Source: a virus (taxonomy: Duplodnaviria; Caudoviricetes). From it: DNA of 64,000 nucleotides. The stretch spans positions 3,513 through 67,512 of the IMG/VR virus record IMGVR_UViG_3300024246_000001. One strand, written 5' to 3'. Of this stretch, positions 2,872 through 64,000 are shown one piece after another. The position numbers and the translations under genes were made by a program. Under the pieces are notes generated by a model. That model was not told the origin of the DNA and did not search any database. It saw only the letters and a list, made by a program, of their open reading frames with translations. Each line of letters begins with the position of its first letter. Position 1 is the first letter of the stretch.

Positions 2872-3645
2872 ATGACTACTAGACGCAATCGCCCCAGCCC
2901 GCCACGTGCGCCCACCACAGCAGGCACCGGGTTCACCAGCAACTTGAGCGTGATCGACGGTGGCCTAGCCGACAACGCAATTGAGCCCGGCGCCACCTCG
3001 CCGGGAGGAGCAGCGCAGCCCTTCGACGAGGACGCCATGCTCATAGCCTCGTGGGACAAGGGCCAGATGGAGCCCGTCACCTTCAAGATCCACGAGCAAT
3101 ACCTCGCGTGGGGCAGGCTAATTACGGAGAGCAGGCGGTTCCCGGCCCTGCGCACGCGTTCGGATCTGGCGAGGTTAGGGTGGGAGCGCGTGGTGGCGTG
3201 GCTCTCCGGGCTTAATGGGGACGCCGCCGAGCGGAGCGTGATGCACCAATTGGCGCAGATGAACGAGAAGGTGGCGTGGGAAAGAAGGAAGCTCGACTAC
3301 GTGCGGTTCATCGAGGACTACACGCCAGTCATACAGGAGCAGTTAGCCCTGCCACACGGGCGCCTGCATGCGGCCAGAGTATTGCGGCGCATGCGCGGGC
3401 ACATCGACGCCATGGAGCCGGGGTTCTATAAGGACGTGTTCGACCAGATGTTCACGGCCAGGTTCGGGGCATATGAGCAGGCCGGGCTCACCTTGATCGA
3501 GGTCGCGGCTGAGGGGGAGGGGGAGGACGGGGCCGGGGCCGGGCTGGTGGAGGAGGGCGCGCACGTGGGGAATGGGTCGCGTGACCACAATGACGGCGTG
3601 GATATGGAGGAGATGATGCGGGAGATTGAGGACATGTTGAAATGA
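2872..3645 (+). CDS. hypothetical protein, possible RHH domain plus acidic tail
   Basis: TFKIHEQYL...FPALRTRSDLARLG; long ORF with high GC3. Confidence 0.65.
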   Translation: MTTRRNRPSPPRAPTTAGTGFTSNLSVIDGGLADNAIEPGATSPGGAAQPFDEDAMLIASWDKGQMEPVTFKIHEQYLAWGRLITESRRFPALRTRSDLARLGWERVVAWLSGLNGDAAERSVMHQLAQMNEKVAWERRKLDYVRFIEDYTPVIQEQLALPHGRLHAARVLRRMRGHIDAMEPGFYKDVFDQMFTARFGAYEQAGLTLIEVAAEGEGEDGAGAGLVEEGAHVGNGSRDHNDGVDMEEMMREIEDMLK

Positions 3646-3980
3646 GCAAACTGATTACGCTGGCTGCTTCCGTAGGTGCCCCACAAATTGACATTGCTCT
3701 ATCTTCGCGCGTGCGGTTCCATTTCAAGGATCGGTGGAAGACGTTGGGGTTGCCCGATGCGTGGATTGAGGTGGGCTTCCACGATTCGAAGGATGCTATT
3801 GAAGTTTACGGTGACTCTGGGTTGGTGCTGGCTGCTGTGGCTTGTAACAAAGTCACAATTGCTTCGATGGATATGTATGGCGGAGAGGCGGAGATTACTG
3901 AGTCCAGACTGCGCATCAAGCAATTGGTACAACAAGTGAATGTAGCGCAAGATCCAATGCGAAAGAAGCACCGCCGGTGA
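3642..3980 (+). CDS. hypothetical protein (lower GC)
   Basis: ATGA/GTGA coupling on both sides. Confidence 0.6.
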   Translation: MSKLITLAASVGAPQIDIALSSRVRFHFKDRWKTLGLPDAWIEVGFHDSKDAIEVYGDSGLVLAAVACNKVTIASMDMYGGEAEITESRLRIKQLVQQVNVAQDPMRKKHRR

Positions 3981-5587
3981 GTCTGCCCACCCCACGCGAC
4001 TTCGGCCTGCCCGACAGGTTCTCAGCTTGGTGGGGTTACCAGGAGGAGGCGTTCGAGCGCGCCATCACCACCGACAAGCGGGTGGTCGCATTAGGAGCTC
4101 CCACCGGGTTCGGTAAGAGCCCGGTAGGTGAGACGGTCAGCATGTTCTGGGGCGCACGCGTAGCCTATCTAGTAATGGACCGCGCCCTGCAAACTCAGGT
4201 GATCGACCCACTGCGGGGCTTCACGCACCGATTCGACGTGCGGGGTAAGCAGAACTATGATTGCAGGGTCTTGGTCGACGCAGGGGTAGATCAGGATAAC
4301 GGTGGCACCAAGTGCGACAAGGCCGAGGGCCTGTGTGAGACCTGCCAATTCAAGGACAAAGGGTGCCATTATTACGACGCGGTGACCGCCGCCATCAAGC
4401 ACGACTACCCGCTCACCAACTACTCCATGTGGTTCGCCATGGCGAGGTATAAAGAGGGGTTGGGCAAGTTCGCCGGACTGGTGTGCGACGAGGCCCACCA
4501 AATTCCGCAGGCTCTGTGCTCGGCCCTCAGAATTGAGCTGGGCCAGCGCACGGTCGAACAATTCACGCGGCGCCCCTTGCCGGGCATGCAGTCACTCGAC
4601 TTGTGGCGCGAGTGGTCGCGCAACCACCTCCACATGCTGGGGCCCCGGCTCGACTCGATGCAGCAGGCCGCGCGCGGACAGGGCAAGCAGAGCTGGGAGC
4701 TCAAGGAGTTGAAGGGGCTCGTGGGAGCGCTTGAGGATCTCGCGAGGGCGAGCGGCGACTGGGTGGAGGACCGGAGCGCGTGGGCGGCTAAAGAGAGGGT
4801 CGGGTTTGAGCCGCTCTCGCCAGCGCCCTACGCCGAGCGCCTCCTGTTCCAGGGGATCAAGCACGTCCTGCTCATGAGCGCCAACCTGCGGCCCAAGCAC
4901 ATCGAATTGATGGGCCTGAAGATGGAGGATGTCGAGTTCGCCGAGTTCCCGTCAAGTTTTCCAATTGCCCGGCGGCCGGTCATCCACGTCAAGACGGTTC
5001 AGCACAAGGCCAGCATGTCGGCCGAGGCCAAGCTGGAGGCCGTGCGGCGGGTGGACCAGATCATCAGTGGCCGGCTTGATCGCAAGTGGCTGATCGACAC
5101 GGTGAGCTTCGATAGGAGTGCGTTCATCCGCGAGCACTCTACATATAGTTATTACATGATCGCCAACACGCCGGGCCGCGACGGGCTGAGTGCGGCGGAC
5201 GCCATGGAGAGGTTCAAGCTGGCCTCGCCGCCGAAGGGATTGATTGGCCCGAGCTTCCGCACCGGGTATGACTTGCCGGGCCAATTGTGTGAGTTCGCCA
5301 TCCTGTTCAAGGTTCCATTTATGGACGGGCGCAACCCTCTCACCGCCGCTCGCCGGGCTGCCGATCCCCTGTGGGAGAAGCTGGCGGTGATGGTCGAGAT
5401 CGTGCAGTTCTTCGGGCGCGGGATGCGGAGCGCCGGGGACCAATGCGAGGGGCTAATTGTGGACGACCAGTTCGCGTGGCTATTTAGGGATTGCGTCCAA
5501 TTGGGGTTTGTGCCACAATGGTTCATACCGGCGGTGAGGCTCAATCAGGCTATACCGAGGCCGCTGTCGAAATTGGAGGACAAATAA
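3977..5587 (+). CDS. DinG/XPD-like SF2 Fe-S DNA helicase
   Basis: Walker A GAPTGFGKS; DEAH (CDEAHQ); SANL motif III; Cys cluster DCR...KCD...CETC...CHYY; KVPF and QFFGRGMRSAGD C-terminal motifs. Confidence 0.85.
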   Translation: MSLPTPRDFGLPDRFSAWWGYQEEAFERAITTDKRVVALGAPTGFGKSPVGETVSMFWGARVAYLVMDRALQTQVIDPLRGFTHRFDVRGKQNYDCRVLVDAGVDQDNGGTKCDKAEGLCETCQFKDKGCHYYDAVTAAIKHDYPLTNYSMWFAMARYKEGLGKFAGLVCDEAHQIPQALCSALRIELGQRTVEQFTRRPLPGMQSLDLWREWSRNHLHMLGPRLDSMQQAARGQGKQSWELKELKGLVGALEDLARASGDWVEDRSAWAAKERVGFEPLSPAPYAERLLFQGIKHVLLMSANLRPKHIELMGLKMEDVEFAEFPSSFPIARRPVIHVKTVQHKASMSAEAKLEAVRRVDQIISGRLDRKWLIDTVSFDRSAFIREHSTYSYYMIANTPGRDGLSAADAMERFKLASPPKGLIGPSFRTGYDLPGQLCEFAILFKVPFMDGRNPLTAARRAADPLWEKLAVMVEIVQFFGRGMRSAGDQCEGLIVDDQFAWLFRDCVQLGFVPQWFIPAVRLNQAIPRPLSKLEDK

Positions 5588-63133: not shown

Positions 63134-63211
63134 TGGTGCTCCGGGTGGGATTTAAACCCACGACCGACAGATTAGTAGTCTGCCGCTCTGTTCTGGCTGA
63201 GCTACCGGAGC
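63134..63211 (-). tRNA. tRNA with anticodon ACU (Ser codon) on an Arg-like class I body
   Basis: Full cloverleaf with encoded CCA; anticodon loop CT-ACT-AA; 5-nt variable loop; A20, C35, U36, A73. Confidence 0.85.
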
Positions 63212-63218
63212 CCAAAAA

Positions 63219-63315
63219 TGCGTCAGGCGGGACTCGAACCCACATGGGGGCCGGGTAACCGACCTTACCGGCGGAGTGACAATCCGCTGCGTCTACCAAG
63301 TTTCGCCACTGACGC
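63219..63315 (-). tRNA. tRNA with anticodon GUC (Asp) on a Leu-like class II body
   Basis: GCGTCAG acceptor; D-arm GCG-AAACTTGGTAGA-CGC; loop TT-GTC-AC; 27-nt variable region; T-loop TTCGAGT; A73; no encoded CCA. Confidence 0.85.
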
Positions 63316-63366
63316 GCACTGCTGTACCTAACGCCTCGTGTGCCTGATCCGCTGCGAGGCGTTGGC

Positions 63367-63685: not shown

Positions 63686-63946
63686 CTACCGCCGTTTGTC
63701 GAACGTACGCAGCATGTGCGACGGAGGAACCTCCAACGCATCCGCGAGCCGCAGCATGATTGTCAACGTCGGAACGTTCTCCCCCCGTTCGATGAAGCCG
63801 AGGTAGTCCGCCGCCATCTCCGCGCGTTCCGCGAGCGCTTCCTGACTCAAGCCGCGCTCTTTCCGCATAATGTGCAGAGCATCGCCGAATCGCTGCCCTT
63901 CCGGGCTCCGTGTCGTCCTTCGCGGCATGACTTGAACACTAGCCAT
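63686..63946 (-). CDS. XRE-family HTH regulator
   Basis: RKERGLSQEALAERAEM..DYLGFIERGENVPTL..MLRLADAL. Confidence 0.9.
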   Translation of the reverse strand: MASVQVMPRRTTRSPEGQRFGDALHIMRKERGLSQEALAERAEMAADYLGFIERGENVPTLTIMLRLADALEVPPSHMLRTFDKRR

Positions 63947-64000
63947 GGGTCGGAGTAGACTTCCATCCAGCCATGGCTAGGAATCAGAAACAGCGCATCA

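Follow-up and report, generated by a model that had tools for sequence, protein, structure and literature searches.

Which amino acid does a transfer RNA (tRNA) deliver when the marks by which a synthetase would charge it contradict the anticodon by which it would be read? The question is raised by a 64,000-nt stretch of DNA from a virus of the Caudoviricetes (IMG/VR record IMGVR_UViG_3300024246_000001, positions 3,513–67,512; hereafter the window), near the end of which a 97-nt tRNA gene, tRNA-1, carries the aspartate anticodon GUC on a body of leucine type. The reading that we favor, at a probability of roughly 0.45, is that tRNA-1 is a functional, phage-borne, leucine-charged tRNA that would read aspartate codons and is cargo of a mobile acidobacterial module. 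We infer its transcription, leucylation, ribosomal use and biological role. An earlier note, made from the letters alone, had proposed it as a candidate for Asp-to-Leu mistranslation; the leucine-type body, the intact gene, an anticodon that varies among relatives and a phage that keeps the standard code speak for that proposal, in which the rival possibilities of charging were understated.

The gene itself is regular. ARAGORN, Rfam and a parse of the stems agree on a 97-nt tRNA with the anticodon GUC, A73, a long variable arm and the details of D-arm and anticodon loop that had been described for it, and Rfam model RF00005 scores it at 50.5 bits (E 2.3e-9; gathering score 29). The acceptor stem (GCGUCAG/CUGACGC) is followed by U8 and G9, a 3-bp D-stem closes a D-loop of 12 nt, A26 lies between the D-arm and the anticodon arm, and CCA is not encoded. 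All stems are paired, with a single U.G at 50-64. The variable region does fold in two ways, as had been noticed; the better fold (−10.9 kcal/mol, RNAfold) leaves C44 unpaired and runs through 2 bp, an internal loop UAA/C and the helix GGUCGG/CCGGCC to a UUAC loop, with A and U48 unpaired at its end. At its foot the arm thus leaves a single 5′ base and two 3′ bases (A and U48) unpaired, the same as in two leucine references with shorter arms (L019 and L057). Other cloverleaves, with the hairpin of the variable region in the place of the anticodon arm or with an 8/4 fold (acceptor/T-stem base pairs), give neither a 7-nt loop nor consistent stems and are rejected.

The body is unambiguously of leucine type, and on the complete leucine identity set claimed for it the comparisons all agree. 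An exact search with the 20-nt D-arm through 185,579 GTDB species genomes (one each) found 19 loci, 14 of them within tRNA-Leu genes called by ARAGORN (anticodons CAG, GAG, UAA and UAG) in many phyla; of the remaining five, one is a Leu-like gene cut by an edge, and four are Leu-like 5′ halves or fragments that ARAGORN does not call. The identical D-arm stands in the tRNA-Leu(UAA) of a metagenome-assembled genome (MAG) of the Thermoanaerobaculia (L019), and a pattern that fixed the D-arm and the anticodon stem but left the loop free matched ten IMG/VR contigs, every one at tRNA-Leu(CAA) or tRNA-Leu(UAA). The anticodon stem is common to tRNA-1 and a phage tRNA-Leu(CAA) (L050, GCGGA-UUCAAAA-UCCGC). 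With profile hidden Markov models (HMMs), for which 25 Leu and 12 Ser tRNAs of class II were used, tRNA-1 scores 44.9 bits as Leu, a value biased upward because the references were partly picked by D-arm identity to tRNA-1, and 9.4 bits as Ser. In leave-one-out controls true Leu tRNAs score 37–70 bits with the Leu model and 4–20 with the Ser model, and true Ser tRNAs at most 10.5 bits with the Leu model, so that tRNA-1 falls inside the range of true Leu tRNAs.

Bacterial leucyl-tRNA synthetase (LeuRS) recognizes A73, the A15:U48 pair, G18G19 and A20a, with the anticodon and the sequence of the variable arm dispensable, and C2-G71 blocks seryl-tRNA synthetase (SerRS) (PMC9976931). Every one of these elements is present in tRNA-1, the anti-SerRS pair included, beside an anticodon that is not that of a leucine codon (NAG or YAA). 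Because these marks are kept and bacterial LeuRS ignores the anticodon, leucine is the amino acid most likely to be found on tRNA-1; we would put charging by the host LeuRS at about even odds, the lack of any translational role as rather doubtful, aspartate as an unlikely cargo and serine as a more improbable one.

Apart from tRNA-1, the D-arm search uncovered tRNA-Leu 5′ halves in which the exact leucine D-arm precedes long insertions, placed at the anticodon loop or beyond it (L020, L010, L013 and L009). These genes may be intron-containing or split, and in the Deinococcus MAG L020 (about 3900–4110, minus strand) there are seemingly two interrupted tRNA genes in tandem.

The anticodon loop has another origin in appearance. 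Its positions 33–38 (UGUCAC) equal those of the tRNA-Asp loop CUGUCAC seen in three of the five tRNA-Asp fetched, and relative to tRNA-Leu(CAA) it is changed at 34, 35, 36 and 38 (CAA..A to GUC..C). None of 22 leucine references has C38, nor do the homologues L027 and L061. The comparison suggests that tRNA-1 was remodelled beyond the anticodon triplet, with C38 gained and U33 and A37 kept.

Relatives of the gene come from metagenome loci that were reached via homologues of an XRE-family regulator encoded 370 nt upstream of tRNA-1. Locus L027, where this regulator is 93 per cent identical, shares the −10 box and the leader hairpin with the window; next comes an 84-nt Leu-type tRNA(AGA) with a variable region of normal leucine size (15 nt), then an ACU tRNA. 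L061 and L062 hold a 97-nt Leu-type tRNA followed by a class I tRNA(GCU); its anticodon arm (GCGGA-CUUGGAA-UCCGC) parses to UGG, which ARAGORN misreads as a four-base anticodon. At the corresponding position L060 has an 8/4 gene like an allo-tRNA, with UGC as its anticodon, and it too has a class I tRNA(GCU); the tRNA-like 8/4 gene (L060:6638-6718) has 81 nt, an 8-bp acceptor stem, a 4-bp T-stem and U73, and is an ARAGORN call below the Rfam gathering score.

Among the Leu-type genes of the window, L027 and L061 every stem is fully paired and no pair is broken, while eight pairs (3-70, 4-69, 5-68, 6-67, 11-24, 31-39, 49-65 and 51-63) have changed in a compensatory manner. A73, U48, C2-G71 and the D-loop are invariant, and tRNA-1 and L061 have in common the long 2 + 6 bp architecture of the variable arm, the inner helix again with a compensatory change. 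The body is therefore conserved while the anticodon varies (GUC, AGA and UGG), and tRNA-1 belongs to a small, mobile family with exchanged anticodons. In further contigs the pair formed by tRNA-1 and its downstream neighbor, tRNA-2, is unchanged (L048, L049), or matches over the part present where the contig starts inside tRNA-1 (L046). The three search patterns found no homologue of tRNA-1 in IMG/VR, and BLAST found none in 301 Thermoanaerobaculia genomes, a weak absence in that only two candidates per genome were scored.

A promoter of its own had also been claimed for the gene. Putative boxes are present, and the −10 box and the leader hairpin behind it are conserved in L027, L060 and L061; a simple sigma-70 consensus scan does not call this promoter, as the −35 hexamer matches at three of six positions. 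The second stem pair of the hairpin, A-U in the window, is C-G in L027, a covariation. With all helices kept by compensatory changes and with promoter and leader conserved, the earlier argument against simple decay holds, and tRNA-1 is an intact gene under structural selection. The hairpin (AACGCCYCG...CGRGGCGUU) and the ACAGCAG motif are kept in all four loci even where tRNA-1 is replaced by another type.

The carrier is a soil phage. The contig has 127 identical bases at both ends, a terminal direct repeat, and is therefore a complete genome of ~67.4 kb, circularly permuted or terminally redundant; both tRNAs are accordingly phage cargo and not host flank. A host flank or prophage edge as the setting is ruled out by the repeat and by phage genes throughout. 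The genome has a G+C content of 62 per cent, and among its products are GroEL, a portal protein, a large terminase and a PolA with a fused UDG domain; the cultured phages closest to it, those of Tunturiibacter (Acidobacteriota), share only 23–25 per cent amino-acid identity. Over all 67.5 kb ARAGORN calls these two tRNA genes and no other, and both lie on the minus strand toward the end of the window. Pfam scans of about 50 phage open reading frames (ORFs), most of which have no Pfam family, found no synthetase, integrase or tRNA-modifying enzyme; a cI/Cro-like regulator pair is present although no integrase was found among these ORFs.

The phage uses the standard genetic code. Aspartate codons (GAY) number 1002, or 5.5 per cent of all codons, and are spread evenly over the genes; GAC alone stands at 43 per 1000 codons, among the top three of the phage, and avoidance of GAY was seen in no phage gene. 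Reading GAY as leucine lowers the Pfam score of PolA from 279.5 to 216.6 bits (a drop of 63) and that of GroEL from 204.5 to 133 bits (a drop of 72), and reading the serine codons AGY as arginine lowers the two scores by 4–10 bits. A recoded phage, with GAY as leucine or AGY as arginine, is ruled out by these losses together with the even use of GAY. It follows that a leucine-charged GUC tRNA would mistranslate and would not implement a variant code. The coordinates of the tRNAs and of the features around them are collected in the table.

Table. Positions of tRNA-1, its parts and the associated features (window coordinates unless a locus is named).
Feature	Position	Strand	Basis or remark
tRNA-1, 97-nt class II (7/5) tRNA, Leu-type body, anticodon GUC (63278-63280), discriminator A73 (63219)	63219-63315	minus	ARAGORN, Rfam RF00005, stem parse, Leu-HMM vs Ser-HMM
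tRNA-1 D-arm GCG-AAACUUGGUAGA-CGC	63289-63306	minus	stem parse
tRNA-1 D-arm, full sequence GCGAAACUUGGUAGACGC, with A14, A15, G18G19, A20a	63289-63306	minus	exact 20-nt search
tRNA-1 anticodon arm GCGGA-UUGUCAC-UCCGC	63271-63287	minus	stem as in phage tRNA-Leu(CAA) L050; loop 33-38 as in tRNA-Asp
tRNA-1 variable region, 27 nt, 2 + 6 bp helix	63244-63270	minus	RNAfold −10.9 kcal/mol; same layout in L061
tRNA-1 T-arm GUGGG-UUCGAGU-CCCGC, canonical T-loop	63227-63243	minus	Rfam, stem parse
Putative promoter: −35 TTGCGG, 17-nt spacer, −10 TAAAAT	63395-63390 (−35); 63372-63367 (−10)	minus	−10 kept in L027, L060, L061
Leader hairpin AACGCCUCG...CGAGGCGUU, then ACAGCAG motif	63330-63363	minus	kept in L027, L060, L061
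tRNA-2, 78-nt class I tRNA, anticodon ACU (63174-63176), encoded CCA	63134-63211	minus	Rfam 63.8 bits, 21/21 pairs
Other Arg-type NCU tRNAs	L027:4596-4673; L060:6730-6804; L061:4875-4947; L066:4315-4391; L067:2360-2434		
Insertion site of 979-bp IS1-like unit in near-identical phage variants	63102/63103		blastn and junction analysis; 32 nt downstream of tRNA-2
XRE-family helix-turn-helix (HTH) regulator	63686-63946	minus	Pfam HTH_31 and HTH_3; upstream of the tRNA pair, same orientation
HTH-like protein of ~155 amino acids, divergent from the XRE gene	starts at 63973, continues in G000:C1:100-564		conserved pairing

The partner follows the same mismatch logic, with an arginine body and the anticodon of a serine codon. 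It starts 7 nt downstream of tRNA-1 and has the full bacterial arginine identity set (A20, C35, U36 and A73) together with an unusual elbow pair, A19:U56. Six loci, this one included, combine the full set (A20, C35, U36 and A/G73) with an ACU or GCU anticodon that reads the serine codons AGY, and all six tRNAs are fully paired; not all of the bodies are homologous, and position 19 covaries with position 56 in the elbow pair, as A:U, C:G and G:C. The nearest housekeeping relatives of these NCU tRNAs are chromosomal tRNA-Arg(UCU) of the class Thermoanaerobaculia. In an eight-tRNA array elsewhere (L047, ODAI012976070.1, positions 583-1176 and 2235-2307), one member, a tRNA-Arg(CCU), shares with tRNA-2 the unusual D-loop CAGAACA and the T-loop UUUAAAU (A19:U56), and the A19:U56 variant therefore also occurs in a correctly matched arginine tRNA.

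Downstream of the pair lies the site at which some phage variants carry, and others lack, a 979-bp unit related to the insertion sequence (IS) IS1 (L049:398-1376 and L046:128-1106), whose product scores 54.6 bits with the NCBIfam IS1 model, below the model cut-off. No terminal inverted repeats were seen, and a 2-bp GG duplication at the insertion is possible; the tRNA may be either a part of the mobile unit or the target of its insertion. A gene for such an IS1-like transposase stands 26–140 nt downstream of the NCU tRNA, in the same orientation, at almost every locus examined (L071-L073 in G001; L076-L085). The Thermoanaerobaculia MAG G001 has three tRNA(ACU) genes, one of them 94 per cent identical to tRNA-2, with an IS1-like transposase gene after each, and an ACU or GCU tRNA lies just upstream of 9 of the 11 further IS copies fetched in the search of the 301 genomes of this class. 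The tally of tRNA and IS in the Thermoanaerobaculia counts 77 genomes, among which the unpublished G172 is one on which no claim rests.

These transposase genes over-use AGT relative to AGC despite a GC3 (G+C at third codon positions) of ~0.8 (e.g. L071:520-1398(−), L078:800-1675(−) and L085:1677-2552(+)), and AGT is the codon to which the anticodon of the neighboring tRNA corresponds. In one subgroup AGT outnumbers AGC by 79 to 21, where six other NNY boxes have only 22 per cent T (odds ratio 13, with a p-value inflated by kinship). One conserved arginine column of the transposase (in the RRYSP motif) is AGT in the AGT-rich subgroup, and the other AGY columns align with TCN serine codons; with AGT read as arginine, transposase scores shift by −2.9 to +0.1 bits under the IS1 HMM and by −0.3 to +2.6 bits under the IS481 HMM. 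An AGT-rich transposase gene beside an NCU tRNA hints that the tRNA cargo may be coupled to transposase expression, a coupling of which no description was found in the literature searched.

On the other side of the tRNAs, homologues of the XRE regulator with the same divergent partner of ~155 amino acids occur in seven loci, and the two are always paired (L023, which is the locus of the window itself, L024, L026, L027, L060, L061 and L063). The partner is 51–73 per cent identical among loci, belongs to no Pfam or NCBIfam family and has an N-terminus like the HTH of excisionase or MerR-type proteins; neither it nor a neighboring ORF of 260 amino acids was found in IMG/VR. The XRE homologues are assigned to the Thermoanaerobaculia. 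In the bacterial contigs L063 and L026 the regulator pair stands without tRNAs, and the contig of L024, the closest relative by its XRE gene, stops ~30 nt before the expected tRNA position. From the XRE gene to the tRNAs the sequence varies strongly. The module would run from XRE and the divergent HTH gene through variable small ORFs and the promoter with its leader hairpin to a class II tRNA, a class I Arg-type NCU tRNA and often an IS1-like gene; its class II tRNA would have a swappable anticodon, and tRNA-1 would be its optional cargo.

The proposed course of events may then be put as follows. tRNA-1 would descend from a gene of the tRNA-Leu(CAA/UAA) type whose anticodon loop was swapped for the Asp-type UUGUCAC, and sequence conservation suggests that it is co-transcribed with the Arg-type tRNA(ACU) from the conserved promoter and leader. 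The host LeuRS would charge it with leucine, and the leucylated tRNA would compete with the host tRNA-Asp at GAC and GAU, inserting leucine for aspartate at some frequency. Its role, more speculatively, could be a controlled and potentially toxic mistranslation for host manipulation, exclusion or addiction.

Several observations weigh against this course of events. The frequency of GAC and the lack of GAY avoidance in any gene mean that efficient Asp-to-Leu decoding would damage the proteome of the phage itself. Related phages at ~45 per cent identity, reached via a neighboring gene (L069 and L070), have no tRNA within 6 kb; the module is therefore accessory, and the tRNAs are dispensable for the phage lineage. 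No enrichment of codons matching the tRNA-1-type anticodons was found in nearby genes (TCT in L027, CCA in L061, GAY in the window). The upward bias of the Leu-model score belongs here too, as does the variable arm, which at 8 bp exceeds that of a normal tRNA-Leu (a region of 27 nt vs 14–19 nt): a lengthened arm lowered leucylation in Aquifex (PMC2377443), arm size is the main SerRS determinant (PMC9976931), and the large arm, C11-G24 and G30-C40 of tRNA-1 also favor SerRS. Some tRNAs of irregular polycistrons, moreover, were charged without decoding in Escherichia coli, and others were uncharged (PMC5389517). As for aspartate, the earlier note had set a full leucine set against an aspartate anticodon; both stand, but it understated the aspartate side, as tRNA-1 lacks only one of the six bacterial Asp determinants, G73, and possesses the others (G10, G34, U35, C36 and C38). 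Those in the anticodon are the strongest for bacterial aspartyl-tRNA synthetase (AspRS) (PMC9976931), and with five of six in place dual or partial charging with aspartate is a real rival.

In that case AspRS would charge tRNA-1 fully or partly despite A73, and the gene would supply an extra decoder of GAC, one of the three commonest codons of the phage, on a foreign body that might resist a host nuclease attacking the normal tRNA-Asp. The specific acquisition of C38 fits this idea well, and yet we regard it as unlikely. Besides G73, tRNA-1 lacks G2-C71, a pair strictly conserved in bacterial tRNA-Asp, and it has C2-G71 and a class II body where tRNA-Asp has a class I body with a variable loop of 4–5 nt. 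AspRS, a class II synthetase, approaches its tRNA from the variable-loop side, where the 8-bp arm of tRNA-1 may clash with it. The homologues, too, carry on the same body AGA, which is no normal bacterial serine anticodon, and UGG, in L061 without the G72 and G37 that prolyl-tRNA synthetase (ProRS) would call for, so that correct charging cannot hold for the family in general. If the enlarged arm instead shifted identity to SerRS, as in allo-tRNAs, serine would be placed at aspartate codons; the size of the arm, C11-G24, C72 and G30-C40 would all suit SerRS (PMC9976931), and acidobacterial GUC allo-tRNAs are common and thought to be serine acceptors (PMC5389517). This seems quite improbable to us in view of A73 and C2-G71, which act against SerRS in E. 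coli (PMC9976931), of the Ser-HMM score of just 9.4 bits, of the normal leucine-size variable region on the same body in L027, and of the foot of the arm, where the counts of unpaired bases (one and two) equal those of the leucine references L019 and L057.

The remaining explanations dispense with decoding. A tRNA-like RNA that is processed and perhaps charged but unused by the ribosome could serve as a regulator, decoy, processing signal or IS recognition element; the published irregular tRNAs that are charged without decoding, or uncharged (PMC5389517), are precedents for it, the module lies among regulators and adjoins a transposase gene, and the harm that efficient Asp-to-Leu decoding would do to the phage is avoided. 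We hold this to be doubtful, since the loop is competent for decoding (7 nt, U33, a purine at 37 and the Asp-type C38), elbow, T-loop and acceptor are canonical, and the strict retention of leucine identity elements in three homologues is hard to explain without aminoacylation. Nor was an antisense partner RNA found within 700–900 nt of tRNA-1, where exact 8-mers and duplex energies stood at chance and no place was conserved across four loci. A recently scrambled tRNA-Leu copy that hitch-hikes with the IS or the XRE module and has no function of its own would agree with a module that is accessory, absent from related phages and not found in IMG/VR or in the 301 Thermoanaerobaculia genomes, and with the variability of the stretch between XRE gene and tRNAs. 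It is very improbable given that three diverged homologues show eight compensatory stem changes and keep every pair intact, that promoter and leader are conserved, and that four loop positions have changed in concert to the aspartate pattern.

A functional Leu-charged tRNA at aspartate codons can be set beside several known systems. The allo-tRNAs of the Acidobacteria fold as 8/4 or 9/3 and have a long variable arm, and their anticodons, of which UAU, GCG and GUC are commonest, cover 35 codons; also published from this phylum are polycistrons of irregular tRNAs, with two or three mismatched tRNA genes in tandem and closely spaced (Mukai 2017, NAR 45:2776, PMC5389517). Some of these irregular and allo-tRNAs inserted serine or alanine at foreign codons in E. 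coli, where allo-tRNA expression, once induced, was toxic (PMC5389517). The pair described here resembles them in its soil acidobacterial source, its tandem mismatched tRNAs, 7 nt apart behind one conserved putative promoter and leader, its long variable arm, its use of an anticodon, GUC, that is among their three commonest, the GCU found in published partner tRNAs, and the neighborhood of regulators, toxin–antitoxin genes and transposons, here XRE, HTH and IS1-like genes; in L060 an 8/4 tRNA even stands at the position of tRNA-1. It differs in that tRNA-1 has a canonical 7/5 fold, a leucine D-arm with a 3-bp D-stem and A73, with no Sec-like fold or marks of Ser, Ala or His, and in that the carrier of the pair is a complete phage genome. 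In mechanism, tRNA-1 comes closest to the nev-tRNAs of nematodes, class II tRNAs derived from tRNA-Leu that are charged with leucine only and decode GGG as leucine in vitro (Hamashima 2012, PMC3333845). tRNA-1 likewise is a class II, tRNA-Leu-derived molecule with an anticodon for neither leucine nor serine; the nev-tRNAs are eukaryotic, chromosomal and confined to nematodes, with CCC and UAU for rare codons, whereas tRNA-1 is on a phage, addresses a very frequent codon and has the Asp-like C38.

The tRNA-ProX of Streptomyces and Kitasatospora, which has a dedicated synthetase paralogue (ProRSx), A33 and A15-A48, mistranslates when expressed in E. coli (PMC11415595). It is likewise a bacterial case of dual identity in which body and anticodon are mismatched, often with A34, which the relatives of tRNA-1 also show (AGA, ACU); the core of tRNA-1, unlike that of tRNA-ProX, is canonical, and the Pfam-scanned phage ORFs hold no synthetase-like gene. 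With the tRNA-Leu(CAA/UAA) of L050 and L019, tRNA-1 agrees identically or nearly so in D-arm, anticodon stem, A26, U48, A73, G1-C72, C2-G71 and type of T-loop, and it departs from them at loop positions 34, 35, 36 and 38 and in its variable region (27 nt vs 14–19 nt). Phages are also known to carry suppressor or replacement tRNAs as accessory cargo that could alter decoding, in recoding phages and in T5-type evaders of anticodon nucleases, and such tRNAs read recoded stop codons or are correctly charged. tRNA-1 differs from these in targeting a sense codon in a phage that is not recoded, with a mismatched identity. The view that such a tRNA is without precedent therefore needs narrowing: long-arm GUC allo-tRNAs and irregular polycistrons (PMC5389517) and nev-tRNAs (PMC3333845) had been published, and what is new is the canonical leucine body with an aspartate loop, its carriage on a complete phage genome and the architecture of the module.

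Natural tRNAs whose charging marks contradict their anticodons test the faithful reading of the code. Few such systems are known (allo-tRNAs, tRNA-ProX and nev-tRNAs). The present locus is a simple case, with a textbook tRNA-Leu body and a textbook aspartate loop on a complete phage, with close relatives that carry other anticodons in its place, and with a partner tRNA of like design. One could go further and imagine the pair as a mobile device for private decoding, spread among acidobacterial phages and insertion sequences, in which the Arg-type NCU tRNA beats the host tRNA-Ser at AGU and the Leu-type tRNA is a programmable missense tRNA under XRE control; this is a long shot. Were it true, the transposase would be made correctly, or at all, only when its own tRNA is expressed, and the Leu-type tRNA would poison or remodel the proteome of a host or competitor as an RNA-only toxin or host-takeover factor. 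The locus raises the question of whether, and against whom, mobile elements mistranslate on purpose; the family to which tRNA-1 belongs, small, mobile and acidobacterial, may be one that deliberately misreads the genetic code.

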